A stretch of 49,631 nucleotides of DNA from Verrucomicrobiales bacterium (GTDB lineage Bacteria > Verrucomicrobiota > Verrucomicrobiia > Limisphaerales > JACDHS01), in contig JAQGOU010000006.1 of the NCBI GenBank assembly GCA_028293445.1, positions 1 through 49,631 on the forward strand, written 5' to 3'. Below, one piece after another: positions 1,357 to 27,290 of the stretch. The position numbers and the translations under genes are program-made. Below the pieces are notes generated by a model. The model ran no database searches and had not been told where the DNA came from. It worked only from the letters and a program-made list of their open reading frames with translations. Every line of letters begins with the position of its first letter. Position 1 is the first letter of the stretch.

Positions 1357-1660
1357 TTTTCCCAGAGCAGGAAAATACTTTCCGAGCTCAGCGGCCATTT
1401 TTCCGGAGTAGAAAAACTCTTTCCGAGGTCGGCGGACCTTTTCCCAGACCGGTAAAACACTTTCCGAGCTCAGCGAGCCTTTTTCCAGAGTAGAAAAACT
1501 CTTTCCGGCTCGACGGCGCTTTTCCCAGAGCAGAAAAACACTTTCCGAGCTCGGCGGACCTTTTTCCGGAGCAGAAAAACTCTTTCCGAGCTCAGCGGGC
1601 CTTTTTCCAGAGCGGTAAAACACTTTCCGAGCTCGGAAAGTTTTTCCCGGAGTGGAAAAT
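1357..1660. repeat. Degenerate tandem array, about 41-bp period, about 7.5 units of paired palindromes
   Basis: CTTTCCG(AG) anchor at 1378, 1419, 1460, 1501, 1541, 1582, 1623. Confidence 0.92.
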
Positions 1661-1801
1661 CCGTAGTTTTGGTCAAAAATCGAGGTTTTTGGAACGCATT
1701 TAGGACCGTCGGCCGTGAATCTGTCCCTTAGGAGAGACAATCGTCCCGGTGATCCTCGATGGTGTGGCGCGGGTACGACCGTTGTTCCGCAACCAATCGA
1801 A

Positions 1802-2662
1802 TCATTCGCCAGGAGACCAATCGGCGGGAGCGAGTGCTTCGATGCCGGGATTTCGAAAGGCAATGCGGCGTTCTTTGTAGAGGGCGCCGAGGGCTTGTTT
1901 GAAAGCTTTTTTGCTCACACCGAATTTCGCACGGATGGTTTCCGGCGAACTATCGTCGTCCAAAGGGAGTTTGCCTCCATTCTTTTCCAGAGCGTCGAGA
2001 ATCAGCTGCTTGAGCGGGACTACGCGCTTGTAACCAGAAGCATTCAGACTGAGATCCATTTTGCCGTCGGGTCGAATGGCGCGGACAAATCCTTGTAGTT
2101 TCTGGCCGATATCCAGCGGTGCCGGGAGTTGATCGTGATAAAGGAGACCGCGATGCGAATTTTCGACAATGGCGTTGTAGCCGAGCGGGGTTCTATCAAT
2201 GACGATGAGATTTACCGGTTGTCCATTGCGATAGTTTGCAGGCTGGCGACTCAAATGGCGGTGGAGTCGTGTTGTTGCCACGATGCGATTGGTTTTTTCA
2301 TCGAGCATGACATAAGCGACGATCTTTTGACCGACACGCACCGGAGCATCCTGTTCGCGAAAGGGAAGCAGCAGATCTTTCGAGAGCCCCCAATCGAGAA
2401 AGGCGCCGATGCGGGGATTCACGCTGATGACTCTAAACTCGGCGAATTCGCCCACCATGGCGCGCGGCATCTCGGTCGTGGCGACCAGGCGATCCTCCGA
2501 ATCGAGATAAATGAAGACGTCGAGGAGTTGTTTCGGGGCAACGTCGTGAGGCACATACCGACCGGGCAGCAATACTTCGCCGAGCTCACCGGCATCGAGA
2601 TAGAGGCCGGGCGCGGAAGCGCGGACAATGGAGAGAGTGTTGCGTTGACCGATCGTTGCCAT
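1802..2662 (-). CDS. cvfB: CvfB-family S1 RNA-binding protein
   Basis: EVLLPGRY, VFIYLDSEDRLVATT, GAFLDWGLSKDLLLP, C-terminal winged helix SKKAFKQALGALYK. Confidence 0.9.
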   Translation of the reverse strand: MATIGQRNTLSIVRASAPGLYLDAGELGEVLLPGRYVPHDVAPKQLLDVFIYLDSEDRLVATTEMPRAMVGEFAEFRVISVNPRIGAFLDWGLSKDLLLPFREQDAPVRVGQKIVAYVMLDEKTNRIVATTRLHRHLSRQPANYRNGQPVNLIVIDRTPLGYNAIVENSHRGLLYHDQLPAPLDIGQKLQGFVRAIRPDGKMDLSLNASGYKRVVPLKQLILDALEKNGGKLPLDDDSSPETIRAKFGVSKKAFKQALGALYKERRIAFRNPGIEALAPADWSPGE

Positions 2663-2773
2663 AACACGGCAATATAACTTGCCAGACCGAAAGTGGAGAA
2701 AAAATTACCGGAAGGGAGGTGAAGCGCGTTGCGATTTTGGAGTGAGCCGGGGTCCCCACGCGCGAGAAGGACT

Positions 2774-2847
2774 GGCTGGATCGAGGCCGGGGCTGTCCAC
2801 CTTGCCGAAGCAAAGTCCGGACAAACCGCCGGCCATCAGATCCGACC
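2774..2847 (-). ncRNA. Long stem-loop with cUUCGg tetraloop 3' of the histone-like ORF (structured UTR or small RNA)
   Basis: Minus strand has four nested helices: GGAUC/GAUCC, GGCCGG/CCGGCC, UGUCC/GGACA and ACUUUGC-UUCG-GCAAGGU. Confidence 0.5.
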
Positions 2848-2853
2848 GGAAGA

Positions 2854-2946
2854 CTACTTCTTCTTAGCGGCTTTTTTTGCAACCGGCTTTTTAGCGGCTA
2901 CTTTTGCTGCGGGTTTCTTAGCTGCTGCTTTGGATTTAGCTGCCAT
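2854..2946 (-). CDS. 30-aa Lys/Ala/Pro-rich histone-H1-like micro-protein (MAAKSKAAAKKPAAKVAAKKPVAKKAAKKK)
   Basis: Translated by hand (ATG 2946, TAG 2854); A-rich leader; start context TAATACTATGGCAGC is identical to that of groEL in this window. Confidence 0.8.
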   Translation of the reverse strand: MAAKSKAAAKKPAAKVAAKKPVAKKAAKKK

Positions 2947-3521
2947 AGTATTATGTTTTCTTTTTTTAGTTTACTTGATTCCGGAGACAACGTTTCGCCG
3001 GAGATCATGGAAACCATGCCCTGTTTTAACGGGTTTTGTAAACAACGGACGTAAATTCATTTTAGGATAATCGGATCGCGTGGACCGATCCGATCACGAC
3101 ATCACTGCGGCCCAATTTCGTCCGCGGGAGAAATTCATTGCGTAGACAATAAATGCCAATACTCATTTATACCCTGTAAACATTGACGCAAAACCTCTCC
3201 TGCTCTTTTCTCGAGCGGGCTCAGATCATTGCGTGAACGGGTGCATTTTTATTTCACGACGCCGTCACCAAAGCTCCGGCATGCACGCGACATTCTTGCG
3301 CTCACGACCTCGCGATGAAGTTTTTTTTCGCCATTTGAGAATTAAAATTCGCGACGAATGCTTTTCCCGGCGCTCTTTTCCGCCGTTGTGATTTTCGAAT
3401 TTCTCATTTTACAAAATGAACCCGCGCATCTTTTTTATGGCGCGTAAACACGAAAAATGCGCCTCACAAAAAAGAACTCGCGTGCGCGTGACGAACCCAG
3501 GTTCTTTGGAGCCATTCTATG

Positions 3522-3549
3522 TTGACATCCTCTTATCTATTTAGAGGAT
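3522..3549 (+). promoter_or_regulatory. TTGACA -35 element overlapped by inverted repeat ATCCTCT-N9-AGAGGAT (possible operator)
   Basis: TTGACA at 3522-3527 and the inverted repeat at 3527-3549, just upstream of the prepilin-like gene; -10 element unclear. Confidence 0.35.
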
Positions 3550-3555
3550 ACGCAG

Positions 3556-4434
3556 GTGGTCAGGATACAACTTCCGCGGCAAAGGGTTTCGCGGCCGATA
3601 AATCAGCGGCTCGGTTTCACATTAACTGAATTGTTAGTGGTGATCGCTGTTGCGGTCGTCCTGGTCAGTTTGCTGTTCCTGGTGATCACCCGGTCAAAAT
3701 GGATGGGCCAGAGCAAATATTGCCTGAGCAATCTCAAACAACTAATGACGGCGAACCAGCTTTATGCTGGGGACAATCAGGATTATCTGCCACCCAATGA
3801 GCCGATTGCTCACGGACAAACGGCGCCGTGTTGGGTGGGTGGCTACTTGGATTTTGCCTCCGATAACACCGACAATACGAACAGCGCTTTGCTGACCGAT
3901 CCCCGGTATTCAAAGTTGGCCCCGTATGCCACTTCGGCCTCGTTGTATAAGTGTCCTGGCGACCCGAGCGTTGTCTCAGGGCTCGGCGCTCGCGTTCGTA
4001 GTGTTGCCATGAATCAGGCAGTTGGGACGCGAGCGAACCGTGAGCCGGTTTCGGGCGCCTGGCTGCCCGGGGGCTGGGATGACCGACAAACGTCCTGGGT
4101 CACCTATCCGAAGTTGTCGAGCATGACGAACCCGTCCCCGGCAATGCTCTGGGTGTTGATCGACGAGCAACCGGACAGCATCAATGACGCCGGCTTTGCG
4201 GTACAATGCAAGTTCGCGACCGGGGATGACGCCGTGATCATCGATTTTCCGGGTGTTTTCCATGAGGGCGGGACAGGAATGGCTTTTGCCGATGGCCACT
4301 CGGAAACCCGCCGTTGGACCGGGCAAGCCATTCAACCGAAGCCAGACTACAAGGGCTGGACGCATCGCAAGCCGGCACGAGACAGTGAGGAAGATTTGAA
4401 ATGGCTACAGGTGAGAACTTCCGCGGCGAAATGA
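3556..4434 (+). CDS. Prepilin-type N-terminal cleavage/methylation and H-X9-DG domain protein (PVC-type)
   Basis: GFTLTELLVVIAV, CLSNLKQL, YKCPGD, IDEQPDSIND, FHEGGTGMAFADGHSE. Confidence 0.9.
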   Translation: MVRIQLPRQRVSRPINQRLGFTLTELLVVIAVAVVLVSLLFLVITRSKWMGQSKYCLSNLKQLMTANQLYAGDNQDYLPPNEPIAHGQTAPCWVGGYLDFASDNTDNTNSALLTDPRYSKLAPYATSASLYKCPGDPSVVSGLGARVRSVAMNQAVGTRANREPVSGAWLPGGWDDRQTSWVTYPKLSSMTNPSPAMLWVLIDEQPDSINDAGFAVQCKFATGDDAVIIDFPGVFHEGGTGMAFADGHSETRRWTGQAIQPKPDYKGWTHRKPARDSEEDLKWLQVRTSAAK

Positions 4435-4679
4435 TCGGCCGCAAAAAGAGCTGAATTCAGAATTACCGCCGGCATTCTTTCGGATCGCACACGTTTGCCT
4501 GCCGGCATTCTCGCATCGCGTGAAGGGGCTGCGGATAAACTGGACGGCCTCTCTGTGTAATCCCTTGGCCGTCGACGGCACTACATGGTTTCACAAGATC
4601 CGCCGCTTCACGTCGAGCCAGTACAAGAAAAAGCGCGAGCGTTCCGCAACGCCCGCGCTTGTGTTACCCATCCAAATGA

Positions 4680-7600
4680 CTATTCGTTTGAAGAAGCCGT
4701 ATCGACTTCGATAATGCGATAAACTCGTTCTTTCGTCGCATTGCTGACGGCCACAGATTCCGTGGCTTGCGTCGCAGTGATCGGCGCGTTGAGACTCACC
4801 CAAGCGGTGCCTTCGCTGCTTTCTTTGTATTGCACCTGATAGGTTTTCCCGACGATCGCATTCCACGTGAGGGTCGCTGTTTCATCCGAAGAAACAATAT
4901 CTCCGCCGTCCACGGACAGTGCACCAACACTGTCAGCAATTACCACCACGGTAATGTCCTTAGAATCCGCTTTCGGGGATGATCCATTCGTCGGAGCATC
5001 TTGTACGGTGACCGTGATGAGATTGGTCGTTCCAGCAAACGTCGCGTCGGGTGTCCAACTGAAGGCGCCTGTGGCTTCATCCATCACCGCGTTCGTTGGC
5101 GCATCGGCATCAATCGTGAAGCCGAGCAATTCTCCAACGTAAGCATCCGGATTTACGCCGGTCGCCGTGAAGTTGATTGTGCTGCCGGCTTTAACAGTCA
5201 CTGGACTGCTGAGCGATGCCGTCGTGACTACCTGGAAGTTATCCATATAGACTTTGTACGTTCCTGTGCCGCCTGCGGGCACGAGGGCCAAATGTTCCAG
5301 CACACCTTTACCGGAAGCGAGGACGCCATTACCCGTCATGGAACGACAGGCTTCAGCAGGCAGGTTGAACGTTAGAGTAGTCCAATTGCTCGCCACGAGT
5401 TGACGATTGGGGAAAGGAGCACCGCCGACCACATTGGTGACGCCCACGAATTCAATGTTTCCGGATACACCACCATTGGCTCCGATCTCAGCGGTTCCGC
5501 CGGTCTCACGAAGGCCCAAGCCAACTTTCAATGCTTTATCGGACCAGATGTCGAATCGAACCGTCTGGCCCAGATCAATCGTCGGGTTCGGAACGAATTG
5601 CGCATCGCTAGTGGTAAGACGTACCCATGGATTCGTCGTCCCGGTCTTGAAGTTGAACGTCGCAAACATTACCCGGGTGCTCGTGTGGCCTGCCGGATAG
5701 GTATTCGTCACGCTCGTCAGATTAGGCGTGGTGTTCAAGAAACCCGACATCCCCGGAGCGAACGTCGGTTGACGGAACATAACGATACCGCTGGATGTGC
5801 CGGATGAGAACGTTTGGTAATCGACAACGGTTTCAGTCACCGTGGCAGAGCCAAGGGTCAGCACCGGTGGCGCATTCGTCGCTGAGATGATGATGGTAAT
5901 GTCCTTCTCGTCATAGAGTGGTGGCACTCCATTATCCGTCACGCGAATGGTGATAATGTTGGTGCTATAACCGCCCGAGGATGGCCATGTGAACAACCCT
6001 GTTGACGGATCGATTGTCGCGCCAACCGGCGGTGTGCCTTGCAAACTGAACGTCAGCGTGTTGGCGGGGAGATCATCGTCTTCGGCTTCCCCTTGCAGCA
6101 ACACCACTTCTCCTGAAGCAATTTCGACGGCCTGATCCGGGAATCCACCGAGTCTCGGCGGGGTGTTCACTTTGTTAACAACAATCGTTACATTCTTCGA
6201 GTCGCTAAGATTACCCGGACCGTCGTCGGTTACCGTCACGGTAATCACGTTTGTGCTTGGTCCCTGAATTGAATCGGGGGTCCAGGAAAAGACGCCGGTG
6301 GCAGGATCGATTTCAGATCCAGCCGGGGCGTTTGTACCAAGGCTGAAAGTTAGGTTTTGACCCGGCAGATCTGCGTCCGTAGCAGAGGCAGTAAACGAGA
6401 GCGATGTTCCAGTATCAACCACCAGATTAGTTGTGACACTGACGACCTGAAAGTTATCGAAGTAAGCATTATAAACTCCCATACCTCCCGCTGGAACTAG
6501 CGCGAGATGTTCGAGAACGCCTTTTCCAGTCGCAAGAACTCCATTACCCGTGAAAGCACTGGTCGCTTCGCTTGGCAGGTTGAACTCCAGGGTGGTCCAG
6601 ACTCCCGCAGCCACGGTGTGGGTGGGATTGGGTCCGGTGCCAAGTGCGCCACTCGATCCAACGAATTCCAGCGAACCAGTTGTTCCACCGTTTTCGCCGT
6701 AGTTTGCGCCAGTAGCAGTCTCACGAACGCCCAGTGCGATCTTGAGAGCCTTGTCGGTGTAAACATCAAACCGGACTCGTTGATTCAGGTTAATCGTCGG
6801 ATTCGGCAAGGTGCTCGCATTAAAGGTGCTCAGGCGCAGCCATGGGTTCGTCACGTTCGTTTTGAAACTAAAGTTCGCCCACAAAACGCGCGAGCTGATG
6901 TTCCCTGCCGGGAATGTTCCCTCGACCGAAGTCGTGTTCGCAGTTGTCGTATCCAGGAAGCCGCTGGTTGTACTGGAATACGAGGGCTGATGGAATAACA
7001 CCGTTCCATTGTACGTTCCATCAGACAACGTTTCGAAGGTGGCTATATTCGTTATCGTCGTCACCGTCGTATTTACGTTGAGAACTGGCGCAATGTTTAC
7101 TTCATTGACGACGACGTTGAAGCTTTGCCGTGCAAATAATGCCGGTGAGCCGTTATCCGTGACGCGCACGGTGACGGGATAAGTATCGGGACCATCTGCT
7201 TCAGTGGTCGTCCAGGAAATCGCACCGCTCGCTGCATTGATGGTCATTCCTGCAGGGGCGCCGGCTTCGAGACTATATGTTTTTCCATTTGCTGGCAGAT
7301 CCGAATCGGTGGCCGAAGCTGTGACACTTAAGGTGCTTAGCTCATTGATCGTCTGCGTCGAAATCGTTGCGAGCACAGGAGCGACGTTAACTTCCAGCAC
7401 CGTCACAGTAATGGTCTCGAAGTCATTTGAGTTCGGAGATCCATTGTCTGTAACTCTAACTGTTAGCGGGAATGAGCCCGGACCTTGAGCTTCTGTGGGG
7501 GTCCAGGTGAAGGCGCCGCTCGCGCCGTCGATGGCGGCACCTGACGGCGCACCAGCGTCGAGGGAATAAGTCCGGGTTTGCCCGACATCCGGATCCGTGG

Positions 7601-10070: not shown

Positions 10071-10144
10071 TTTCGTTTTAGTTCCTGAATTGGGTGTTCA
10101 GAAACAATAGGTTTTTTAACAACTGTTGCGGGATAAGTGTAGGT

Positions 10145-10174
10145 CTTATACTACGTCGAAAGCTCTTTTGTCAA
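10145..10174 (-). promoter_or_regulatory. Putative sigma70 promoter of the amidase gene
   Basis: Minus strand TTGACA-N18-TATAAG, about 75 nt before the ATG at 10070. Confidence 0.5.
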
Positions 10175-10305
10175 TAGGGCTTATAGAATATATGGAAAAA
10201 TATTGCCTTTCGGCCTTCGTGTGTAGTAAACAGCCTATGCGCTTTGACGGGGGGCGGTGATGGACAAGATCTTCTATCGCATCGTACACTACGAGCACCT
10301 TTCCC

Positions 10306-14224: not shown

Positions 14225-14420
14225 ATGCGTTAGAAATAATTGGCGACCAAGCCAGGAATAATTCCGGCGCTAATTTGCCCACGAAAGCTTTCCCCTCTTT
14301 TTTCTCCGGGCGAAAAAGCGGGAGCTTTTAAGCTCTCCCGAAACTGGCTCCGTTTCTGTTTTGCCTCGGATCCTTTCCACGGACGAAAGTTGCCAAAAAA
14401 TCGACTCGATTTAGCCTCCC

Positions 14421-14780
14421 GGAAAAAATTCCGCTAAAAATCCGGACCTTTTGCACACACTCAAAAACTTTCCGCTAAAAAAATATGAGATTTGCACTGT
14501 GTGCAAAAACTTCCGCTAAAAAAATAAAAGTTTTGCACACACCGGAAAACCTTCGGCACGCGGATAACTTTTTTGCACACACTTAAAAACATTCCGCCAA
14601 AAAAATATAAAATTTGCACTGTGTGCAAAAACTCCCGCTAAAAGAATAAAAGTTTTGCACACTGTGCAAAATGTTCCGCGAAAAAAATAAAAGTTTTCTA
14701 CTGTGTGCAAAAGTTCCGGCGAAAAAGTTTTTTCTTTTCAACTCAGTGGAAAAAATTCCGCTAATTAGCGGAATTTTTTT
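14421..14780. repeat. Degenerate tandem array, about 41-bp period, about 9 units, ending in a 30-bp perfect palindrome
   Basis: CCGCTAAAA-like anchor at 14431, 14472, 14513, 14554, 14594, 14635, 14676, about 14716, 14758, alternating with TTTGCAC..GTGCAAAA. Confidence 0.92.
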
Positions 14781-14952
14781 AGGGAGGTGCAAACCAACCA
14801 GCGACAAGGACTTAGAGATTTTGACCAGTTTTGCGCTGTGAAAAATCGAAAATGGCAGGATTTCTTCCGGTAACGTTATCGGGAGTTCGTCGTGTCGCGG
14901 TTCACCCGTGGAAAATTTCACCGGCATTTGCGGCGGCACACGGCGTAATAAA

Positions 14953-16398: not shown

Positions 16399-16451
16399 GC
16401 GAGGAACTTAGAACGCCACGCGGAAGTTGTTCAATTTGATTTGTGCGCGAT

Positions 16452-18148: not shown

Positions 18149-18171
18149 TAATTCATTCTTCTTCTGAGCTG

Positions 18172-18220: not shown

Positions 18221-18310
18221 CCAGCTTGTGTTCAGGCCGGGGGCCTCAGATTCATAAAAACGACTTGGACTAACCGCCGGTCGCCGGTAACAATTTACGT
18301 TCTCACGAAT

Positions 18311-19633
18311 ATGCGTTCACTTATTTTTCGCTCGGGCTTTTCGATCCTGGCTGGGTTCTGTTTTTTTTCCCTTTCCTCCGTTGCGGCCGAGAAGGCGCGC
18401 TGGTTCAAAGGGAATACACATACTCATTCGTTCTGGAGTGATGGTGATGAATTCCCGGAAATGATCGCCGACTGGTATAAAACCCATCAATACGATTTCC
18501 TCGCCTTCTCAGATCATAACTCGGTACAGGACGGAGAAAAGTGGCTGCCCATCAATGACCCTAATCGTCCCGCGATTCTCAAGAAATATATCACGCGCTT
18601 TGGTGTGATCGGTGTGGAACAAGAAAAACGCAACGGCACGAATTATGTCCGTTTGAAAAAGTTCCAGGAGTTCGAACCTCTTTTCCAGGAAAAGGGGAAG
18701 TTCCTGCTGCTGCGCGGCGAAGAAATTTCTGCGTCCGTCCCTGGCACCCCTCTTCATATTGGCGCCGTCAACGTGACCACCTTGATTGAACCCCACTACG
18801 GCAGCAACGTCGCCAACATTACCGAGGTGATCGATCAGAATCTCGCGGCCATCTTTGAGCAACGCAAAAAAACGCGTCAGCCGGTACTCGGGCATGTGAA
18901 TCATCCGAATTTTCAATGGGCCATCACGGCTGAAGAATTGATGGCGGTAAAAAACGAACATTTTTTCGAAGTCTTCAACGGTCATCCCCACGTCCACAAC
19001 GACGGTGATGCCACCCACTCTGGCACAGAACGGATTTGGGATATCATGCTCACGCATCGCCTCACTGATTTGAAATTACCCGTCGTTTACGGGATCGCAA
19101 CCGATGACTGTCATCACTATCAAGTCTGGGGCGCGCGGAAAAACAATCCAGGTGAAGGCTGGGTCATGGTGCGGGCGAAGACGTTGAGTGCCAAGAGTCT
19201 GATTGAGGCAATGGAACAAGGAGACTTCTACGCGTCGAGCGGAGTCACGTTGCGCGACGTGCGCCGCGATAAAAAAACCTACACCGTGGAAGTTGAACCC
19301 ACCAGCGGTGTCGATTACACCATTCAATTCATCGGCACCCGCGCCGGTTTCGATCCGAAGAGCGAGGCCGTGTTGGACAAGAATGGCACCGCTCTCCGTG
19401 TGTCGCGTCGGTATAGTCCGAGCATTGGTGAAGTGTTCCAGGAAGTTAAGGGCACCGCCGCCACTTATACGCTGAAGGGCGATGAGATCTACGTTCGTGC
19501 CAAAATTGTTTCTTCGAAGATGAAATATCCGGAAGCCGCCGCGACGGCACAGAAGAATTCCATGGAAACATTTGAGTCGGCGTGGACGCAACCACTCGTG
19601 AATGCGAAGGTAAAGCTGGCCTCTAAAAACTAA
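18311..19633 (+). CDS. Secreted PHP-domain metallo-phosphoesterase
   Basis: Signal peptide; GNTHTHSFWSDG, SDHN, NHPN, ATDDCH. Confidence 0.85.
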   Translation: MRSLIFRSGFSILAGFCFFSLSSVAAEKARWFKGNTHTHSFWSDGDEFPEMIADWYKTHQYDFLAFSDHNSVQDGEKWLPINDPNRPAILKKYITRFGVIGVEQEKRNGTNYVRLKKFQEFEPLFQEKGKFLLLRGEEISASVPGTPLHIGAVNVTTLIEPHYGSNVANITEVIDQNLAAIFEQRKKTRQPVLGHVNHPNFQWAITAEELMAVKNEHFFEVFNGHPHVHNDGDATHSGTERIWDIMLTHRLTDLKLPVVYGIATDDCHHYQVWGARKNNPGEGWVMVRAKTLSAKSLIEAMEQGDFYASSGVTLRDVRRDKKTYTVEVEPTSGVDYTIQFIGTRAGFDPKSEAVLDKNGTALRVSRRYSPSIGEVFQEVKGTAATYTLKGDEIYVRAKIVSSKMKYPEAAATAQKNSMETFESAWTQPLVNAKVKLASKN

Positions 19634-19647
19634 CCGCGAGGCGCGGT

Positions 19648-20298
19648 TTAACCAGGCCGGTTTTTACCGAGAAATTTCACCACCGCTTCCGTGCGCGACC
19701 GCACCTGAAGTTTTTCGTAAATATTTCGCAGATGATTGCGCACTGTAAAAACGCTGATGCCGAGCATGTCAGCGATTTCCTTGTATTGATAACCCTTGGC
19801 CAGGTGCGTGAGGATTTCGTGCTCGCGCCCGGATAGTTCCGCCGTCTGCTCGGAGGTTTTTCCCATGTCCTGCACATATTGCACAACCTTCCGTGCGATC
19901 TGACTGGACATCGGTGAGCCCCCTTTTTGGACCTCCGCTATCGCTTCGATAATTTGCACCGGCGCCGTTTGTTTAATCAGGTAGCCGCTTGCGCCCGCCA
20001 TCAACGAATCGAAAATCTTCGCGTTGTCCATGTAAACGGTGAGCATGATCACCTGCAACTTCGGGCGCACCGCTTTCAACTTCCCGACGCATTCTATCCC
20101 AGAGATTTCTGGAAGGTTGATATCCATCAGAACAACATCTGGCCAATCGAGCGGCAGCCGTTTCAACGCCACTTCGGCATTCGGAAACGTGCTGATGCAG
20201 CGATAGCCGGGCGTGCCGTTGATAAGGATGCTCATGGTTTCGCGCACACCGGCGTCATCCTCCACGATGGAAACTTTGATCGGGTTGGTTGTGCTCAT
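19648..20298 (-). CDS. NarL/LuxR-family response regulator
   Basis: IVEDD, MDINLP, LSGREHEIL, TVRNHLRNIYEKL. Confidence 0.95.
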   Translation of the reverse strand: MSTTNPIKVSIVEDDAGVRETMSILINGTPGYRCISTFPNAEVALKRLPLDWPDVVLMDINLPEISGIECVGKLKAVRPKLQVIMLTVYMDNAKIFDSLMAGASGYLIKQTAPVQIIEAIAEVQKGGSPMSSQIARKVVQYVQDMGKTSEQTAELSGREHEILTHLAKGYQYKEIADMLGISVFTVRNHLRNIYEKLQVRSRTEAVVKFLGKNRPG

Positions 20299-23279
20299 GT
20301 CTGCTCAGGCTTGGGGGTTTTGATCGGAAATTGAATCGAAATCTTAGCGCCTTTTCCGGCAGCGCTCTGCAATTCAAACTGGCCACCGACTGCTTGCATC
20401 CGTTTCTGCATATTTTTCAAACCGTTCCCGGCGTGGGCTGCTTCAGTCGGGCTAAATCCTTTGCCATCGTCCTCCAGTGAAAAAAATAAAATGCCGTCAC
20501 CACTGCGTAGCTGCATGGTGGCTGCTGTGGCGCCCGAATGTTTAACGACGTTGTTTAAACATTCTTTCACCACGGAAAAGAAATTATGCCGCACATCGGA
20601 GGGTAATTGGATGTCTACTACTTTGTCGGGAAACTCGAACCGGCTTCGAATGGAAGCAGTTTCGAGATAGGCCTGCGCATACTCATGAATGTATCCGACA
20701 AGTTTTTCGAGCGAATCGTTTTCCGGGTTCACTGCCCAGACGATGGCGTCGAGGTTGCGCACCACATCGTGCACGGCCGAGTTCATTTTCGTGAGGTGCG
20801 CTGGCGTGTCAGTGGCATTCTTTTTTGAGGCCAATTCACTCAAGAGAAGAATTTCGGTTAACCGCGCGCCGAGTTCGTCGTGCATATCTTGGGCGATGCG
20901 GGTGCGCTCGCGTTCGACAGCATGCTCCTCTTCAGTGCGACGCAGCTGCGATTTAATCTTATGCACGGACACATAACGTACCGTTCCCACTACTAGGCCG
21001 GAGGCGAGCAGCGCCAGCGCGCTCATGAACCACCAGCTTTTATAAAATGCCGGCGTCAGCGACACATTAAATGTGATCCCCTTTTGATTCCACAGGCCGT
21101 CACTGTTGCAGGCTATCACGCGGAATTGATACTCACCTGCAGGCAGGCGCCCGTAATGAGCCTCCCGCTTCGTAGCGTCGATCCAATCGCTATCCCATCC
21201 GTCGAGTTTGTATTTAAAGGCCATCTTTTCCGGCGCATCAAAACTCGGGGAGGTAAACCGAAATACCATTTCGTTTTTATTAGCCACCAGGCGCACGGGC
21301 TGTGTTGAGTCTACTTCATGGCCATCAACGAGGACCTCTTCCAGGTGCAGTTGGGGCGGTTCCTGATTGAATGTTTCCCGGCGCGGATCAACAACAACAA
21401 CCCCTCTACTCGTGGGGACCCAGAGCTTTCCATCCTGCGTTTTACAGAGCGCGGTGCTTCCTGTTCCTTTGCATTCGGTGCTTAACATTCCGTCTGCTTT
21501 GCCGAACACCGTGCAGGAGATTGTCTTCTCCAGCCCCGCTTCAAAATCGGCCAGGTTCTTCTTGTGGATACAGAATATCCCGCGGGACGATGTGAGCCAC
21601 AGCCGGCCGAATTCGTCTTCCTGAATCCCGTGGATCTGGTCATGGAACAATCCATTCGTGGTCGTGAAGGTAGAAAAGGTTCCGTTGTGAAAACGATTCA
21701 GGCCGCCCATCGTTCCGACCCAGACACTGCCTTCTTTGTCTTCAAAGATTACTGACACGAAGCGGTGCGAAAGACCGTTCTGCACTCCATAGCTTTTAAA
21801 CGTTCCCTTTTCTCCAATGGCCATTCCCCCATCCGTTCCACACCACAACCTGCCCTGCCGATCTTCATAAAAGCACTCAATCGAATTGGATGGCAGCCCG
21901 TTCGCGACGGTGTAGCGCGTGAATTCTGAATTCTGGTATGCCGCCAGCCCGCTCCTTGTGCCGACCCACAAAACTCCTTTGCTGTCTTCAAACAATGCGC
22001 GAATGGAGTGATCAACAAAGCCTTCCTTGCTGCGAAGGTGATCGATCCTCTCGTTCGACATTCGATTTAGTCCGCCGTCATAATCCATGCCGAACCACAT
22101 CTCACCTGCGCGACTGGGGAGAAGCGTTAAAACCAAATCACTCGAGAGGCGTTCGGTCCGTGAAAATTTTTGGATCTCATTCCCGCTGACCTTGTTGACA
22201 CCACCACCCCACAAGCCAATCCAAACCGCACCGGCTTTGTCTTCCGCAATTGAGCTGACGGAGTTGTGCGAAAGTCCATTCTGCATCGTGAGCGTCGTCA
22301 GCACCCGGCGCTTCATCCGAATCAAGCCATCCCGCGTGCAGACCCAGAGATTTTGCTCGCGATCTTCGCTGATGCCATAGACGCGGTCGAAAGATCCGCC
22401 ATCCGTCGCCGTTTCGATGATGAACTTTTCTTCACTGCGCCGGGTCAGCCCATTGAGAGTACCGATCCAGAGCTGTCCCTCGTGATCTTCAAAAACGGAG
22501 CTGACGATGTTATCCGACAGCCCGTCTTTCTGCGTGAAATTCCTAAACTTCCCATCTTTGAAGCGGCTCAACCCGTAATGCGATCCGACCCAGAGATTTC
22601 CAGAACGATCCAGGCAAAGCGCCCGCGTTGAATTGTGTAGCAATCCCTGCTTCGAGGTGTAGGTCGTGAATTTGCCTTCCGCATAGCGGGACAGGCCCGA
22701 CGCCGTGGCGATCCACAAGTTGCCCTTGGTATCTTCGCATATCGCACGAATGGAGTTATGAACAAGGCCATCGTTTGTGGTGAAATTGGTGAAAGCGCCG
22801 TTCTGGTGTTTGAACAGGCCTTTCGATCCCGTCCCGATCCACAACGATCCGTCCCTGCTCTCAAAGAGCGTGGTGATTGCATCCTCACCGATCACTTTCG
22901 GAATTGGGAATGGCCTGATGGCGCCTCGCAAAATATGCGTGACAGTTCCCGAATCGGTTCCAATAAAGATCGCACCGGATTGGGTTTGGTGGATCGCTGT
23001 GATCATCTGATTGCTGAGCCCCGTGGTGGTAATGGTGACGAACCTCGCCCCGTCGAAGCGGGCCAGGCCTGCTTCCGTGCCGATCCACAAATAATTGTCC
23101 GCTGACTGAGCCGCGCTCCGGACAGCGTGCGTTGGAAGTCCATGTTCTGACTGCCACCGCTGGGAGATATAAGATTCGGTCTCTCTGACCACGGCCGCCT
23201 GAAGTTGGGGCACGACCGAGAGCGCCACGCACAAGGCGAGGATGAGAAGGCGACACTGCTGGCTTGCGCTCATGTTCAA
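20295..23279 (-). CDS. Membrane sensor histidine kinase with Reg_prop beta-propellers, Y_Y_Y and HisKA_3 domains
   Basis: Many GLxxNxI...EDxxGxLWIGT repeats, YKLDGWD...Y, a TM helix, IAQDMHDELG. Confidence 0.93.
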   Translation of the reverse strand: MNMSASQQCRLLILALCVALSVVPQLQAAVVRETESYISQRWQSEHGLPTHAVRSAAQSADNYLWIGTEAGLARFDGARFVTITTTGLSNQMITAIHQTQSGAIFIGTDSGTVTHILRGAIRPFPIPKVIGEDAITTLFESRDGSLWIGTGSKGLFKHQNGAFTNFTTNDGLVHNSIRAICEDTKGNLWIATASGLSRYAEGKFTTYTSKQGLLHNSTRALCLDRSGNLWVGSHYGLSRFKDGKFRNFTQKDGLSDNIVSSVFEDHEGQLWIGTLNGLTRRSEEKFIIETATDGGSFDRVYGISEDREQNLWVCTRDGLIRMKRRVLTTLTMQNGLSHNSVSSIAEDKAGAVWIGLWGGGVNKVSGNEIQKFSRTERLSSDLVLTLLPSRAGEMWFGMDYDGGLNRMSNERIDHLRSKEGFVDHSIRALFEDSKGVLWVGTRSGLAAYQNSEFTRYTVANGLPSNSIECFYEDRQGRLWCGTDGGMAIGEKGTFKSYGVQNGLSHRFVSVIFEDKEGSVWVGTMGGLNRFHNGTFSTFTTTNGLFHDQIHGIQEDEFGRLWLTSSRGIFCIHKKNLADFEAGLEKTISCTVFGKADGMLSTECKGTGSTALCKTQDGKLWVPTSRGVVVVDPRRETFNQEPPQLHLEEVLVDGHEVDSTQPVRLVANKNEMVFRFTSPSFDAPEKMAFKYKLDGWDSDWIDATKREAHYGRLPAGEYQFRVIACNSDGLWNQKGITFNVSLTPAFYKSWWFMSALALLASGLVVGTVRYVSVHKIKSQLRRTEEEHAVERERTRIAQDMHDELGARLTEILLLSELASKKNATDTPAHLTKMNSAVHDVVRNLDAIVWAVNPENDSLEKLVGYIHEYAQAYLETASIRSRFEFPDKVVDIQLPSDVRHNFFSVVKECLNNVVKHSGATAATMQLRSGDGILFFSLEDDGKGFSPTEAAHAGNGLKNMQKRMQAVGGQFELQSAAGKGAKISIQFPIKTPKPEQT

Positions 23280-23416
23280 AGAGGGATGCGATGAGTGTAT
23301 CAGGCAGGTGTCGGGTTTTGAAAACGTTTTTCGCGGTGTTATTCTTCCGTCCGCAATCGCAACCGCCGGGATTGGTCTCGCCTGTTCGTTTCTTTTGTAT
23401 TTAGATCCGCCGTCCT

Positions 23417-24515
23417 GTGCTCACAAAGCAATTTTTCGTTTTATGCTTTCTGCTTGGCTTCGCTTTTCCGCGTTGCGCTGTCTCCATGGAATCAATTGAG
23501 GTTTCAGCAGATCACGAGCATTTCGCGTTCAGCAAATCGAAAGCCAAGTTCTCTCCGCGAGGTTTTAATTATGACCGTGATTACAAAATGCGTTTGCTGG
23601 AAGACTACTGGGATACGGAATGGGAAACCGTCGTCGAAGATTTTCGGGAGATGAAACAGCTCGGCGCCAATGTTGTTCGCATTCATCTACAAGTGGCGAA
23701 ATTCATGGAAGGTCCTGATAAACCAAACCGCCGCTCTCTCTCTCGTTTGAAACAGCTGCTGAACCTGGCAGAAACGACCGGCCTCTATCTCGACATCACC
23801 GGCCTTGGTTGTTATCGCAAAGCAGACGTCCCGGCCTGGTTCGAACACCTCAACGAACAGGACCGTTGGACTCTCCAGGCCAACTTTTGGCGAGCCATCT
23901 CAAAATCTTGTTCGAAAAGCCCCCGCTGTTTTCTGCTACGACCTGATCAATGAACCCGTGGTTCCAGAAACCCGCTCGACCGATTGGCTCGTAGGACAAC
24001 TGGCCGGATTTTACTATGTGCAGGCCATTTCGCTTGATCGAGGGGATCGAACGCGCAGCGCTGTGGCCGCAGCCTGGATTTCAAAACTGACGAAAGCGAT
24101 CCGCCGCGAAGACCAAAGGCACCTCATCACCCTCGGCTTTCTTCCCAACAGTGCCGAAGCTTCCGGTGGCTCCGGTTTCCCTCCGCGCGAGGTGGCTCGC
24201 GATTTAGATTTCGTTTCGGTGCATCTTTATCCTAAACCCGGACATTTAACGGAGGACTTGGCTCTCTTACGCCAGTTTGCGATCGGCAAACCGCTCGTCA
24301 TTGAAGAAACTTATCCAATGCCGGCCAGTGCTGCTGACTTGAAAACGTTTCTCGAGGCCTCAATTCGGATAGCTAACGGCTGGATCGGGTTTTATTGGGG
24401 CAAACCGCCCGCAGAACTCCGCGAATCCAAACAAATCGGCGATCACATCCTCTTGAGTTGGTTAACTGTGTTCAAGGAGCTGAATCATTCGAACCCTCCT
24501 GGGAAGGAAAAATAA
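23417..24515 (+). pseudogene. GH5-like (clan A) glycoside hydrolase split by a +1 frameshift (or a sequencing error)
   Basis: ORF 23417-23953 (GFNY, ANVVRIHL) and ORF 23805-24515 (YDLINEP, SVHLY, IEET) join if one C is removed from the C5 run at 23920-23924. Confidence 0.75.
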
Positions 24516-24750
24516 TTGTGAACTGTTCACCGGTTACGTTGGAATCCTCCGTGAATAGTATGGGTGCAACTTTAATAACATCGACTAAAGCGACATACGG
24601 GAACTTACCGACAGAGTTATCAGGGGGTGCTGACGCCCGTTTTGAGCCCGTCCGTCCTGACGGATTGGAGTTGTTTGACTTATTCACACCCCTTAATAAG
24701 AATAGACTTTTAGATTCAAAGAAGTCTTTAATAGAGCGTTGTGGATCGCG
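24516..24750. other. Putative replication origin oriC
   Basis: Consensus DnaA box TTATTCACA at 24680-24688, then CCCC and trio-like TAA TAA GAA TAG in an AT-rich tract; degenerate boxes nearby; dnaN, mnmG and parS close by. Confidence 0.6.
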
Positions 24751-24752
24751 CA
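24678..24752 (+). repeat. Direct repeat copy 1 of the dnaN leader and first codons
   Basis: 24697-24752 aligns ungapped with 25647-25702 at 45/56 identities by hand, including the identical 17-mer TAAGAATAGACTTTTAG. Confidence 0.88.
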
Positions 24753-24835
24753 CACCATCGATTTAAGTAAATCGACCCGATTCCAACCCGGTGTCCAGAC
24801 CTTGCCGTCAGGACCGTTGTTTTAAGAAGAAGCGT

Positions 24836-25477
24836 ATGAAAAAATTAGTTTTGTCTGTCCTCCTACTAGTTGCGGCGTTCGCCAGCCACGGAATGGTCCT
24901 CTGTGTGGTCAACAAAACAGATGCCCCTGTGACGCTAACGTGTCAATACGGAGGCCTGATGACTGTGGATCCCGGGACTACGAACGAAGTTTCCGTCGTT
25001 CTTCCGACTCTGCCCATCACATTTTCTCAGCCATTCGATCCAGCCGTTGGCTTTGAGCCCACGACGGTTGCCTGGGTCAACTGGATTACCGATTACAACA
25101 TCACCATCACGAAAGCACGCTTTTGGAATGACCCGGCCAAGTTGCTGCGAGTCAACCTGCGTCCAGTCCGCATCGAATACGTCACAGTGTGGAATGATTG
25201 CGCCGAAAATTTCAGAGTCGTCGATGTGAACACCCATCGGTTGTACGGGATCGTCTATGGAACGAACGACAGCGAGCACGATCACTTCACCACGTTTCGG
25301 TTTGTGAACAGGGTGAACCTGATGTTTCGCCAGCCCTTTAACGCCGAGTTGCATCGCGTTCCGACCGGTCACGTGCGCATCCCCGCCGGGGGCAATTGGA
25401 ATGTTTTTGTGTCGCAACCGGCTGGCTATCGCTTCAACGGCGACGTGTTGCTGAGCAAGATGGAAACGGCACCGTAA
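24836..25477 (+). CDS. Hypothetical secreted protein with a two-fold internal repeat
   Basis: MKKLVLSVLLLVAAFASHG signal peptide; ITFSQPFDP..PT resembles LMFRQPFNA..PT; followed by a terminator. Confidence 0.7.
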   Translation: MKKLVLSVLLLVAAFASHGMVLCVVNKTDAPVTLTCQYGGLMTVDPGTTNEVSVVLPTLPITFSQPFDPAVGFEPTTVAWVNWITDYNITITKARFWNDPAKLLRVNLRPVRIEYVTVWNDCAENFRVVDVNTHRLYGIVYGTNDSEHDHFTTFRFVNRVNLMFRQPFNAELHRVPTGHVRIPAGGNWNVFVSQPAGYRFNGDVLLSKMETAP

Positions 25478-25525
25478 GCCTTGCCGAATTCTGCAGGGTG
25501 GCGGTCACCCCGAGTGTTTATTTTG

Positions 25526-25559
25526 GACCTCCCGACGAAAGCGGGAGGTCTTTTCGTTT
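25526..25559 (+). terminator. Intrinsic terminator
   Basis: GACCTCCCG-acgaaag-CGGGAGGTC followed by TTTTCGTTT. Confidence 0.85.
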
Positions 25560-25625
25560 CCATACCGCAGAAAAATCGGAATCACGCCGGAAAACTCCTC
25601 ACTCCTTGACACCTGGGGTTCTTTC

Positions 25626-25702
25626 ACTTATTCAGAACTCTTAAAGTAAGAATAGACTTTTAGTTTCAAAAAAGTTTTCATTAGCGCGCCATGAATCTCG
25701 CA
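25626..25702 (+). repeat. Direct repeat copy 2 (functional dnaN leader and start)
   Basis: Core offset 950 bp from copy 1; DnaA box reads TTATTCAGA here. Confidence 0.88.
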
Positions 25703-26797
25703 ATAGCAAAAGATCAAATCATTCACGGGTTGCAAGCGGTCCAAAACGTCGTCAGCACACGAACCACGCTGCCGATTCTTTCGAATGTGCTTTTGCGCGC
25801 CGAAGAGAACATGCTGGAACTGACCGCGACAGATCTGGACGTAACCGTCTCCTGCTCAGTGGAAGCGGCCGTAAAAAAGGTGGGCTCAACGACGGTTCCT
25901 GTGAAGAAAGTTTATTCACTCATCAGCGCGTTGACGAATCCCGAAATCGAATTCGAAGTGGACGACAAAAACGCCTGCAGCATCCGCGCAGGCTCGTCGT
26001 TTTATAAGATCAACGGTCTCGCCGCCGAAGAATTCCCGCCGATCCAAAAATTTAAAGAGAACAAAAAGATCACGCTCCCTCAGGAAAAGCTGAAGAGCAT
26101 GCTCAAGAAAACGTCCTTCGCGATCTCCACGGACGAATCGCGTTACGTCTTGAACGGAATTTTCATCAGCCTGAAGGATCACAAGATGACCATGGTTGCG
26201 ACAGATGGCCGCCGCCTTGCCCTCGTAGATGAAGAAGTGGAACTCGGCGACACCACGGGAGAATTCATCGTCCCAACGAAGGCTGTGAACGAATTGAGCC
26301 GCCTGCTCAGTGACAAGGGTGAAGTTGAAATCAAATTTACGGAAAACCAGGTCGCCTTCGCGTTGAAGAACGAAAAGGGCGCTTCGATTTTGATCATTTC
26401 GAAATTGGTGGAAGGAAATTACCCCAATTATCGCCAGGTGATCCCGGCTGAAACCAAGGAACGCATTCCTTTGGTGCGCGAAGAATTTCTGGCCGCCTTG
26501 AAGCGCGCCGAAATCATGACCAGCGACAAGGCGAACTCGGTGAAACTGCATTTCACGAAGAACAACCTCGCGATCACGGCCAATTCCCCCGAAGTCGGTG
26601 AAGCCCGCGAAAGCATTGCCGTGAATTACAAAGGCAAGGAATTCGCGATCGCGTTCAACCCGGCTTACATGATTGATCCCCTCAATGCGTTGAGCTGCGA
26701 CGAAGTTTATCTCGAACTGATCGATGAACTGAGCCCCGGCGTCCTGAAGACCAACGCGCCGTTCCTCTACGTCGTCATGCCGATGCGTTTGAGCTAG
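25691..26797 (+). CDS. dnaN: DNA polymerase III beta sliding clamp
   Basis: TLPILSNVLL, ATDLD, SRYVLNG, VATDGRRLA, LVEGNYPNY, VVMPMRL. Confidence 0.98.
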   Translation: MNLAIAKDQIIHGLQAVQNVVSTRTTLPILSNVLLRAEENMLELTATDLDVTVSCSVEAAVKKVGSTTVPVKKVYSLISALTNPEIEFEVDDKNACSIRAGSSFYKINGLAAEEFPPIQKFKENKKITLPQEKLKSMLKKTSFAISTDESRYVLNGIFISLKDHKMTMVATDGRRLALVDEEVELGDTTGEFIVPTKAVNELSRLLSDKGEVEIKFTENQVAFALKNEKGASILIISKLVEGNYPNYRQVIPAETKERIPLVREEFLAALKRAEIMTSDKANSVKLHFTKNNLAITANSPEVGEARESIAVNYKGKEFAIAFNPAYMIDPLNALSCDEVYLELIDELSPGVLKTNAPFLYVVMPMRLS

Positions 26798-26829
26798 GAA
26801 GCTTCGGCTGGAGCTGATTTATAATCTTG

Positions 26830-26861
26830 AGGCTGCGATCCTGATGATCGCAGCCTTTTTC
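26830..26861 (+). terminator. Intrinsic terminator after dnaN
   Basis: AGGCTGCGATC-ctgat-GATCGCAGCCT followed by a T-run. Confidence 0.88.
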
Positions 26862-26894
26862 GTTTCAATAGAGGCGGATAATCGATCTCAAGCG

Positions 26895-27003
26895 TCCAAC
26901 CTCCAAGCTCCAGAGAATTTCCAAAAGCCAAAATCCAATCGTCAGTGGTGAGTGGCCAGGCCAAGCCGAGCTTGGCAATCGGTTATTGGCTTTTGACTAT
27001 TGC
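26895..27003. repeat. Inverted pair of 7-bp-period microrepeat tracts
   Basis: CAA/CAG at 26897, 26904, 26911 and 26922, 26929, 26936; complementary TTG/TCG at 26972, 26979, 26986, 26993, 27000. Confidence 0.6.
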
Positions 27004-27084
27004 TCCTCAGGTAGGCTGAAGTTCAGTAGCTGAAAGGATCACGAAAGGCTGCCACACATGCTTCCCATTGCTCATCAGCCAGTT

Positions 27085-27290
27085 AAGGCCTTTCTAAAAG
27101 GCTTTAAAAAATCGGTTTACTCAGAAAAGGGCATTTTAAAAGTCTTTCAAAGAGCCCTAAACTGGGAAAACCCCTTTTCAAAAGTCTTTTGGAGAGGGGT
27201 AAACCGAGAAAAGGGCTCCTTAAAAGTCTTTTGAAAAGGCCTTTCCCGGGGAAAACGCATTTTAAAACCCTTTTTGGGAGGCACTTTTTC
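27085..27290. repeat. Degenerate tandem array, 42-bp period, about 5 units
   Basis: AAAAGTCTTT-like anchor at 27096, 27138, 27180, 27222, 27264. Confidence 0.85.

Follow-up and report, generated by a model that had tools for sequence, protein, structure and literature searches.

Dispersed tandem arrays with a strict unit length of 41 or 42 bp and free sequence occupy 1.3% of the DNA of a Limisphaerales genome (G000, 6.89 Mb), in about 361 non-coding arrays that belong to 92 sequence families. That the geometry stays constant while the sequence varies is strongly supported. New here are a one-sided IHF-like box at the array edge and the helical phase-lock of the array dyads to this box. Among the readings considered, a structural role at the DNA level fits best.

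Arrays in the window and across the genome

The window, i.e., the whole analysed stretch of 49,631 nucleotides, contains three arrays (Table 1). They are real, and TRF confirmed their periods of 41, 41 and 42 bp, reporting 6.8 copies with 79% matches for array 1 (1356-1659), 6.1 copies with 69% matches for array 2 (14449-14726) and 2.6 copies with 70% matches for array 3 (27123-27231). Genes for an RF-1-domain (ArfB-like) protein and a CvfB protein converge on array 1, those for a beta-propeller protein and a sulfatase converge on array 2, and array 3 sits in the tandem gap between dnaN and pgi. The first-pass annotation had described the three as unrelated in sequence, and they do fall into different blastn families (6, 6 and 2 members) with no match longer than 12 bp between them. 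The palindromes it listed are also present, two of them perfect (Table 1) and a 13-bp odd one visible in the sequence of array 3. Rfam gave zero matches within the window.

Table 1. Positions of the arrays, palindromes and flank elements in the window
Feature	Position	Strand	Description
Array 1	1356..1659		Period 41, ~7 units, sequence family of 6 copies
Perfect 20-bp palindrome	1622..1641		Array 1 end, where another copy of the family has the box
Cassette enclosing array 2	14252..14928	-	677 bp, 93.6% identity to the copy on contig C5
Array 2	14421..14780		Period 41, ~8 units, sequence family of 6 copies
Perfect 30-bp palindrome	14750..14779		Box-proximal end of array 2
Array 2 one-sided predicted flank box	14788..14817	-	Matrix score 13.0, reads into array
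Array 2 second flank word TGGTCAAA	14820..14827	-	Points into array
Array 3 degenerate flank box, weak	27058..27087	+	Score 5.2; other family member 14.5
Array 3	27085..27290		Period 42, ~5 units, sequence family of 2 copies

Genome-wide, 369 arrays were detected, of which 8 (7 families, all of period 42) were excluded as genuine coding repeats; blastn grouping gave 99 families, 92 of them non-coding. The first-pass annotation would have been refuted by a lack of enrichment of intergenic repeats at 41-42 bp, and this refutation did not come about. A lag scan with a threshold of at least 62 matches per 100 at each locus found 240 loci at 41 and 93 at 42 (333 together) versus 3 at 40 and 0 at 43, and at other classes 0 loci at 20, 12 at 21 and 0 at 52. 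TRF placed 284 of 382 arrays at period 41 or 42, with further ones at the multiples 82 and 122/123. The steps from unit to unit were 41 bp (1,033 cases), 42 bp (222), 40 bp (17) and 43 bp (4), with a mean of 41.2 bp, or 4 x 10.3; identity between adjacent units is about 0.71, and any 11-mer is common to at most 3 of the 92 family units. The proposal of a shared geometry without shared sequence is upheld by this strict period over 92 unrelated families. Across 47 copy pairs of 29 families, arrays carry 84 indels to 1,703 substitutions, compared with 110 to 1,307 in the shared flanks (odds ratio 0.59, pooled p = 3e-4; by family 17 versus 8). Conversion between units might produce such a deficit, and detection by period is biased towards arrays with few indels.

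Remnants of genes for repeat proteins of 7 or 14 amino acids, or artefacts of assembly, are a scarcely credible source of such arrays. The excluded coding repeats speak for this origin, as do the 77 of 369 arrays no more than 100 bp from a contig end, a position by which arrays help to explain fragmented assemblies. Against it, period 41 (254 of 369 arrays) is out of frame, and stop codons occur in 5 or 6 of the six frames in each window array, in array 2 in all six; for the period-41 majority this rules out the gene remnants that the first-pass annotation had kept as an option. Called ORFs overlap 16 arrays, and 353 lie outside them. Parts of array 2 recur with 0-1 differences in contigs from a public run, possibly that of the source sample itself, and the same periods occur in four relatives of the same taxonomic family, at 32-102 arrays per Mb.

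Flank box, helical register and symmetry of the unit

A box with a matrix score of at least 12 reads into the array in 90 of 361 cases and away from it in 8, compared with 8 of 661 controls. It never stands at both edges, and families with a scoring box make up about a third of the 92. The exact IHF consensus WATCARNNNNTTR points into 20 of the 361 arrays and away from 7 (control 12/796); 48 of the 90 boxes are within one mismatch of it, and at one of its positions 27 of the 90 agree with it. Among 55 held-out arrays, the matrix found 13 boxes into versus 6 away from the array, and the IHF consensus 6 versus 1 when exact and 18 versus 17 with one mismatch. The IHF consensus and a 9-bp proline spacing are given in the available text of PMC8421141, and in the perfect 27-bp form of the box two halves that follow the consensus have their TT/AA steps at a distance of 9 bp. 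This form occurs in at least 158 viral loci, and the box motif was found elsewhere at tRNA 3' ends, an integrase junction, an ICEclc end and upstream of dnaA. tRNA 3' ends, integrase junctions, ICE ends and the region upstream of dnaA are places where IHF works.

Three HU/IHF proteins are encoded in the genome, one of which best matches IHF-beta with a score below the curated cut-off; HU/IHF proteins are present in array-poor relatives too. The box is a predicted IHF-type bending site that the IHF-beta-like protein may bind. A two-box pattern is followed by a downstream array in 11 of 13 hits in G000 and 4 of 5 in relatives of the same family, compared with 0 of 9 in other families. The Flavo-1 RNA (RF01705) was tried as an identity for the box and rejected, with a best genome match of 15.7 bits against a cut-off of 42, a consensus unrelated to the box, and zero matches in the loci with the perfect palindrome.

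Within the window, a clear box is missing in two of the three arrays. The copy that forms array 1 has lost it (score 1.5), and one other member of that family scores 19.6; in the relative G002, the dnaN-pgi gap is occupied by a 42-bp array of unrelated sequence whose box is clear (18.0). The box of array 2 agrees with 6 of the 9 specified IHF-consensus positions on the + strand (14802-14814) and may be an IHF binding site; here TGGTCAAA sits 12 bp before TAAGT, compared with 33 bp in most families.

The dyad axes of the arrays lie 16-17, 26.5-28, 37.5-38 and 48 bp from the box centre, and their phase at 10.3 bp reaches R = 0.95 over 19 families, the 16.5-bp class being partly circular because the matrix was trained on windows that touch the array start. 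Eleven held-out arrays of relatives gave R = 0.90, and the 30-bp palindrome of array 2 has its axis 37.5 bp from the box centre, which is on the 10.3-bp lattice. In approximately a third of the families, the array is thus in fixed helical register with the IHF-like box.

The paired palindromic halves attributed to the unit hold statistically. A best 9-bp dyad of at least 8 of 9 was reached by 28 of 99 family units and by 14 of 1,980 shuffles, and, where two dyads were scored, the second lies exactly half a period away in 61 of 71 period-41 and 11 of 17 period-42 arrays. That the final half is the most palindromic holds if it is taken as the unit adjoining the flank box (7.11 versus 6.1-6.5 of 9; 21 families, p = 0.007), and is not clearly so in array 3. 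T- and A-tracts are common as borders, while several families do without them. Phased curved DNA, another earlier suggestion, was not borne out, since the predicted intrinsic curvature of the arrays (7.18) does not exceed that of run-shuffled tandem controls (6.85 +/- 3.5).

The palindromes are likely DNA dyads rather than RNA stems. Strings of RNA hairpins that act as terminators, mRNA stabilisers or small RNAs would account for the better folding of the three window arrays than of shuffles (z -2.9, -8.4 and -5.6) and for four terminator-like sites near array 2 against 1.6 +/- 1.5 expected, and the available part of PMC8625621 reports B. coagulans satellites as transcribed. This explanation is nevertheless very unlikely. 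Folding follows from DNA symmetry alone, two-sided Watson-Crick changes show no compensatory excess (131 versus 137.9 in column shuffles), and G-T amounts to 124 versus 157 for A-C on the box strand (p = 0.056, counts non-independent). Nor do the arrays have an orientation relative to genes or, in the window, any Rfam match. The gaps of the 369 arrays are tandem in 126 cases, divergent in 80 and convergent in 41, with 106 at contig edges and 16 overlapping ORFs, and the flanking gene ends are 5' in 378 cases versus 3' in 239. A location downstream of a gene 3' end is therefore true of the three window arrays and not of the genome as a whole.

Turnover of the cassettes and rival explanations

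Among 220 orthologous gaps, none held arrays in both genomes and 9 held them in one only, and the filled gaps are 190-914 bp longer than their empty orthologues; therefore, the blocks move or turn over. Only 3 of 20 array loci of G001 and G002 matched G000 arrays. From the start of the box downstream, the identity between copies is 0.82-0.92; more than about 70 bp upstream of it, the value drops to less than 0.45, one end being roughly fixed near the box. Variants of the units are common in register between copies, and thus the cassettes are copied whole. The contig depth over ~14286-14933, which overlaps the array 2 cassette, is 2-6 times that of the flanking genes; the ends of this cassette are ragged, and neither a terminal inverted repeat nor a target duplication was seen. 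A MITE or non-autonomous IS was rejected, as 113 copy-pair alignments have ragged ends and the printed pairs contain no terminal inverted repeats or target duplications. No cognate enzyme for the arrays was found. The dnaN gap holds arrays in two congeners, which counts against purely random placement. A link to the origin, raised earlier, is unsupported because the window density (3 in 49.6 kb) matches the genome mean (361 in 6.89 Mb), and so is one to the histone-like micro-protein, which the window query did not find in array-bearing relatives.

A possible, though less likely, alternative is that the cell needs a certain density of sites at which IHF/HU, gyrase or some other chromosome protein bends and wraps the DNA, their positions being flexible, so that host benefit rather than self-copying keeps the geometry. 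The similar array density in the four relatives, the period kept as sequence turns over and the deficit of array-free contigs longer than 20 kb (11 of 67 versus 16.8 expected) agree with this, as does the BIME precedent, in which, as far as the available text of PMC3333891 goes, an IHF site lies in the BIME-1 linker and gyrase cleaves at BIME-2 in E. coli. Moreover, five of six family genomes carry three HU/IHF genes, and G003, with two (80% complete), has no array in 56 kb, a comparison of gene counts that rests on two outgroup genomes. Against such host sites, positions are not conserved, the other families of the order that were sampled are essentially without arrays, curvature does not exceed controls, and no histone fold was found in G000, G001 or G005.

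That the arrays are REP/BIME (REPIN) elements mobilised by a Y1 transposase of the RAYT type seems very improbable. In the available text of PMC3333891, BIMEs are likewise intergenic, palindromic, tandem and variable in presence, with an IHF site in the BIME-1 element. The arrays are also lineage-specific, Y1 transposase domains exist in the genome, and 39 of 99 units contain CGTC where shuffling gives 25.8 +/- 4.4, but without a fixed terminal position in the consensus list. In contrast to REP units, the arrays lack the GTAG tag (4/99 units versus 26.6 expected), fall into 92 unrelated families where REP elements have a small set of conserved types, and keep a fixed period with free sequence; their IHF-like box is single and stands outside the array on one side. 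No Y1 transposase is linked to them: Y1 domains occur in 28 of 31 relatives regardless of arrays, no array lies beside the three Y1 genes of G000 (89% complete), and of 12 other Y1 loci, one has a clear array at ~1 kb and one more a low-complexity signal.

The polar order of upstream word, IHF-like site and array at fixed spacing resembles CRISPR leaders of types I-E, I-F and I-C, which have IHF site(s) and an upstream motif (bioRxiv 2023.05.26.542337); IHF sites at phage and ICE ends are grouped with them as similar IHF-anchored systems. An enzyme recruited by the IHF-bent leader might duplicate a fixed 41 or 42 bp at the leader end, as Cas1-Cas2 with IHF does at CRISPR leaders, and the period would then be a ruler of birth that needs no later function. 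The most palindromic unit standing first, and period 41 being already present in high-identity, weakly palindromic arrays (rho -0.26, p = 0.04, 63 families), speak for such templated addition. We consider it improbable. Unlike CRISPR, the arrays have no unique spacers or adjoining cas genes and occupy hundreds of loci; adjacent identity is flat along them (0.62-0.66), with no young end, and the in-register variants point to whole-cassette copying. No enzyme that tracks arrays was found: Cas1 was not found in array-bearing G001 (95% complete), nor reverse transcriptase in array-bearing G001 and G002, and the CRISPR of the genome itself lies apart from the arrays as a type V-B locus of the ordinary kind. 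The arrays were rejected as CRISPR arrays themselves, since both unit halves repeat and the sole Cas1, on contig C341, has its own ordinary array and no 41/42 array.

Relation to known satellites and proposed explanation

The F-plasmid centromere sopC consists of 43-bp repeats with a palindromic SopB site. The arrays resemble it in a tandem unit of roughly four turns with a dyad for a dimeric protein; sopC is one locus with one sequence and a linked ParB gene, whereas the arrays have hundreds of loci, 92 sequences and no linked gene seen. A closer likeness is to the satellites of constant length and variable sequence described in Bacillus at 20-21 and 52 nt (Subirana and Messeguer, PMC8161180) and in Leptospira at 46 nt (PMC6749651). 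According to the available text of PMC8161180, there are several families per genome, inverted signals inside the unit and just 'a few' 40-41-nt repeats, related to the 20-21 class. The arrays share with them the non-coding nature, many unrelated families per genome, 4-10 units, a constant period close to a whole number of helical turns, short signals with their reverse in the unit, and restriction to a lineage with partial conservation between relatives. Such satellites also have a few short signals that recur in every repeat of a species; in the arrays, T- and A-tracts are frequent without being universal, and no 11-mer recurs in more than 3 of the 92 family units. They differ in a 41/42 period without a 20/21 sub-period, in a new phylum and in the number of ~361 arrays, and the flank box, polarity and phase-lock are not described in the available text of the two papers. 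The arrays are a four-turn variant of these satellites, filed as a variant because their period differs from the described 20-21 and 52 nt; to call them a new element class, as was first done, overstated their novelty.

The strict period, inversion symmetry, one-sided boxes, phase-lock, cassette copying to new gaps, and gain or loss of arrays between congeners are the observed base of our explanation, in which the proteins are inferred. The dispersed non-coding cassettes, with ~7-8 units of 41 or 42 bp, would be scaffolds of double-stranded DNA whose unit length is set by a protein that binds once per two or four helical turns. The register would start from the predicted IHF-type bending site at one end, where a single IHF-beta-like protein may bind the near-symmetric box as a homodimer; a second dimeric or filament-forming protein would occupy the array, and the folded complex may get the cassette copied or retained. 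A protein-bound, four-turn DNA scaffold with an IHF-type start site, copied as a cassette, has in our judgement about an even chance of being right.

A bolder version is tentative and rather doubtful. In it, the arrays would be a hitherto undescribed class of four-turn nucleoprotein cassettes anchored by IHF. Homodimeric IHF would bend the leader box and thereby fix the register in which a second protein polymerises along ~300 bp of dyads two turns apart, and the folded complex would be both a copy-and-paste unit and a chromosome-folding module. If this is true, helix-quantised bacterial satellites (21, 41/42 and 52 bp) would all follow from one principle.

The papers on repeats of fixed length and free sequence left the reason for the length open, as far as their available text goes, and named no protein. 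Here, a four-turn length is kept over 92 families, and about a third of these are phase-locked to a box that resembles the target of a known DNA-bending protein, for which the genome has a gene; the helical register to this predicted box provides a testable handle on constant repeat length. For the organism, it means that 1.3% of the chromosome of a common soil bacterium is a fast-turnover element without transposon ends.

Abundance, period and symmetry of the arrays

The 41/42-bp pattern is real and strong in the Verrucomicrobiales genome (6.89 Mb in 659 contigs, 89% complete) from which the window comes. TRF (score ≥70, span ≥60) found 382 arrays, 201 of them with period 41, 83 with 42, four with 40 and one with 43. 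The dominance of 41/42 was also seen in an independent lag scan, with 240 loci at lag 41 and 93 at 42, against three at 40, none at 43, none at 20 and 12 at 21. The three arrays that the first-pass annotation had reported in the window are present at those places with those periods (see table); they belong to three separate blastn families and share no match longer than 12 bp, which bears out their description as mutually unrelated. Searches of the window with Rfam and ARAGORN gave no matches.

Features located in the window and elsewhere in the same genome (G000)
Feature	Location	Strand	Remarks
Array 1	window:1356-1659		period 41
Array 2	window:14421-14780		period 41
Array 3	window:27085-27290		period 42
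30-aa Lys/Ala-rich ORF	window:2854-2946	-	like histone H1-like tails; no NCBIfam match
dnaN, pgi, mnmG, dnaK, groEL and xerD-like genes	window:25691-43332		clustered; local array density equals the genome mean
Box copy upstream of dnaK	window:33006-33035	+	score 15.7; no array
Type V-B CRISPR locus	G000:C341:1522-8407		Cas12b (1,435 aa), Cas4-Cas1 fusion, Cas2; array cut by contig end

A looser scan gave 382 candidates; 13 fitted a short period better and were discarded, and the remaining 369 arrays sum up to 92.7 kb, with a median of 258 bp and 99 families including 37 singletons. Remnants of repeat-protein genes had been named as the case against a new element; eight arrays in seven families are indeed coding and were removed, and the other 361 arrays in 92 families were kept as non-coding. 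The length of arrays away from contig edges peaks at 264-390 bp. In the 63 families with at least four units, the step from unit to unit is mostly 41 bp (1,033), followed by 42 (222), 40 (17) and 43 (4), and identity within arrays is 0.71 for adjacent and 0.65 for distant units. Contigs C221, C327, C568, C617 and nine others carry further repeats: four period-127 arrays assembled from the modules of a period-42 family and, as a separate repeat class, nine arrays of perfect heptamers.

The units exceed shuffles in dyad symmetry and have a second dyad half a period away. The "paired palindromes" of the first-pass annotation thus come down to a single property, that of a periodic block roughly resembling its own reverse complement. 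High-identity arrays are somewhat less palindromic (rho -0.26, p=0.04; group contrast p=0.17) but hold to the period. Phased curvature, one of the roles proposed earlier, finds no support, the intrinsic A-tract curvature being no greater than in tandem units shuffled by runs (AA/TT z=1.7 at the fourth harmonic). Strings of RNA hairpins fare no better, since covariation inside arrays is not above shuffles and there is no G-T bias.

Gene context was taken from 5,583 genes predicted with a codon-model caller of our own. Among intergenic gaps no shorter than 300 bp, arrays were found in 39/116 convergent, 73/287 divergent and 120/502 tandem ones; the siting downstream of gene 3' ends seen in the window is not general. 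Their orientation follows neither genes nor GC skew, and no replication-strand preference was found (38/76).

A one-sided box in helical phase with the units

A TAAGT-NNN-TG motif lies 10-60 bp outside one array edge, pointing into the array in 58 cases and away in eight. With a matrix trained on this genome, a box scoring at least 12 was found at 90/361 arrays, reversed at eight and in 8/661 controls, and never at both edges. Among the 162 matches scoring at least 15, 92 precede an array, 38 are in other intergenic sequence, 25 are coding and seven point away; many of the 38 precede decayed arrays, as judged by eye. A second word, TGGTCAAA, is directed inward in 45 cases versus four and stands most often 33 bp before TAAGT. 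The two words combined occur 13 times in this genome (one match at a contig end), three times in the family relative G001 and once each in G002 and G004, and an array follows in 11/13, 3/3, 1/1 and 0/1 of these, respectively. The pattern occurs once each in 9/296 other genomes, about the level of reversed controls, and there an array follows in 0/9.

Measured from the box centre, the dyad axes fall at 16-17, 26.5-28, 37.5-38 or 48 bp. In the 19 families passing the length and dyad filters, dyad phase relative to the box gives R=0.95 at 10.3 bp, versus 0.26-0.36 at five other periods, and held-out arrays, of which 11/16 passed the filter, give R=0.90. The most palindromic unit is the box-proximal one.

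The reverse complement of the box resembles the IHF consensus WATCARNNNNTTR, for which the accessible text of PMC8421141 describes a 35-bp site with two proline intercalations 9 bp apart. Exact consensus matches point into 20/361 arrays and away from seven, with 12/796 in controls; at one mismatch the counts are 99, 48 and 131. For 55 held-out arrays, matches into versus away are 6 vs 1 (exact), 18 vs 17 (one mismatch) and 13 vs 6 (matrix). A perfect 27-bp palindromic form of the box has TT and AA steps 9 bp apart and is common in viral contigs, at no fewer than 158 loci. There this palindrome, made up of two IHF-consensus-like halves, lies between genes, often with several copies per contig and in close pairs (L091-L248). 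Our literature searches found no description of this viral palindrome, and no viral locus with the motif continues into a 41/42 array. The perfect palindrome occurs in 13/151 genomes of the order by tally, with none in the row of the present genome. Three of 34 metagenome matches to the motif abut a tRNA 3' end and 0/34 precede a 41/42 array; in the order, the motif also occurs between an integrase and tRNA-Lys and upstream of dnaA, and in the available part of PMC6050381 it falls within the primer for one ICEclc end.

Three HU/IHF genes were found in the genome, one (G000:C508:816-1142) with its best match, below the cut-off, to IHF-beta. The other two are near-identical HU-like paralogues (contigs C392 and C72); three HU/IHF genes are present in 5/6 family genomes versus two in the outgroups G009 and G016. 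The likeness is suggestive of a predicted IHF-type site, on whose near-symmetric sequence we infer that an IHF-beta-like protein might bind as a homodimer.

Cassette copies and distribution among relatives

Between members of a family, unit variants match in register and the likeness extends into as much as ~200 bp of flank, in blocks of 221-595 bp (10th-90th percentile, 113 alignments) whose ends are ragged, with no terminal repeats seen. Copies are 0.82-0.92 identical from the box inward; in the 30 bp ahead of the box this drops to 0.63-0.68, and more than 70 bp away it is under 0.45. Relative to substitutions, the arrays have fewer indels than the flanks that copies share (17 vs 8 families; p=3e-4 when pooled). 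A separate dispersed element of ~230-320 bp (90-98% identity) lies near several arrays (contigs C577, C483, C166, C620 and C169).

Sampled sequence of relatives in the family, rather than whole genomes, gave 32 lag 41-43 loci per Mb in G001 (586 kb), 33 in G002 (606 kb), 58 in G004 (224 kb) and 102 in G005 (147 kb), and none in 56 kb of G003, whose assembly is 80% complete. In 512 kb from ten genomes outside the family there was a single lag-42 match, which rings at six other lags too. More distant dnaN sequence (71 loci, 1.15 Mb) contained two lag-42 matches, of which one is a 14/28 multiple and the other lacks TRF support. High-identity period-43 arrays occur in family-level relatives (L268, L069, L062), and array period may drift by genus. 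No match was found in phages or plasmids.

The earlier idea of comparing filled and empty orthologous gaps was taken up with G001 and G002: among 220 gaps shared with them, nine are filled in one genome, 211 empty in both and none filled in both. The dnaN gap, checked separately, departs from this: both the present genome and G002 have a 42-bp array there, and the two are unrelated.

Candidate enzymes, known repeats and a proposed mechanism

None of the enzymes tested tracks the arrays: Cas1 is present in 4/6 genomes, reverse transcriptase in 3/5, an IS91-type enzyme in 1/5 and Y1 in 28/31. A Cas1 fusion similar to that of the type V-B locus (see table) occurs in G002. Of 13 tyrosine-recombinase loci, 12 were checked and 0/12 are within 3 kb of an array. 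The 30.7-kb contig C352 carries three tyrosine recombinases and no array, which suggests that recently acquired DNA lacks arrays. A histone fold above the cut-off was found in 0/5 genomes. The 30-aa ORF was found in 0/5 family relatives, a weak result because the query is short and of low complexity.

A 2020 survey of bacterial satellites reportedly included a 22/44-nt class. Bacterial repeats of constant length and variable sequence, of 20-21 and 52 nt, are described in the accessible part of PMC8161180 as several families per species with inverted short signals and function unknown, and the B. coagulans units printed there contain an inverted signal pair. The present arrays agree with that definition as available to us, except in length (41/42 nt). 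Leptospira has 46-nt repeat families (PMC6749651, in part), and transcription of satellites has been reported (PMC8625621, in part). Compared with the features in the available portions of PMC3333891 and PMC3733652 (REP/BIME) and bioRxiv 2023.05.26.542337 (CRISPR leaders), the arrays came out as neither REP nor CRISPR, nor as MITEs. Flavo-1 RNA, as partly described in PMC2864571, was rejected on testing as the identity of motif or arrays. Literature searches, whose coverage left out most subscription papers, found no description of 41/42 arrays or the flank motif.

The arrays are a four-turn variant of a known, unexplained kind of repeat, set apart here from descriptions available in part. Their unit length would be set by protein binding on a double-stranded DNA scaffold starting from the predicted IHF-type site, a mechanism whose prospects we consider evenly balanced. 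What is new is an anatomy that is polar and in phase with the helix, which points to a DNA-bending protein.
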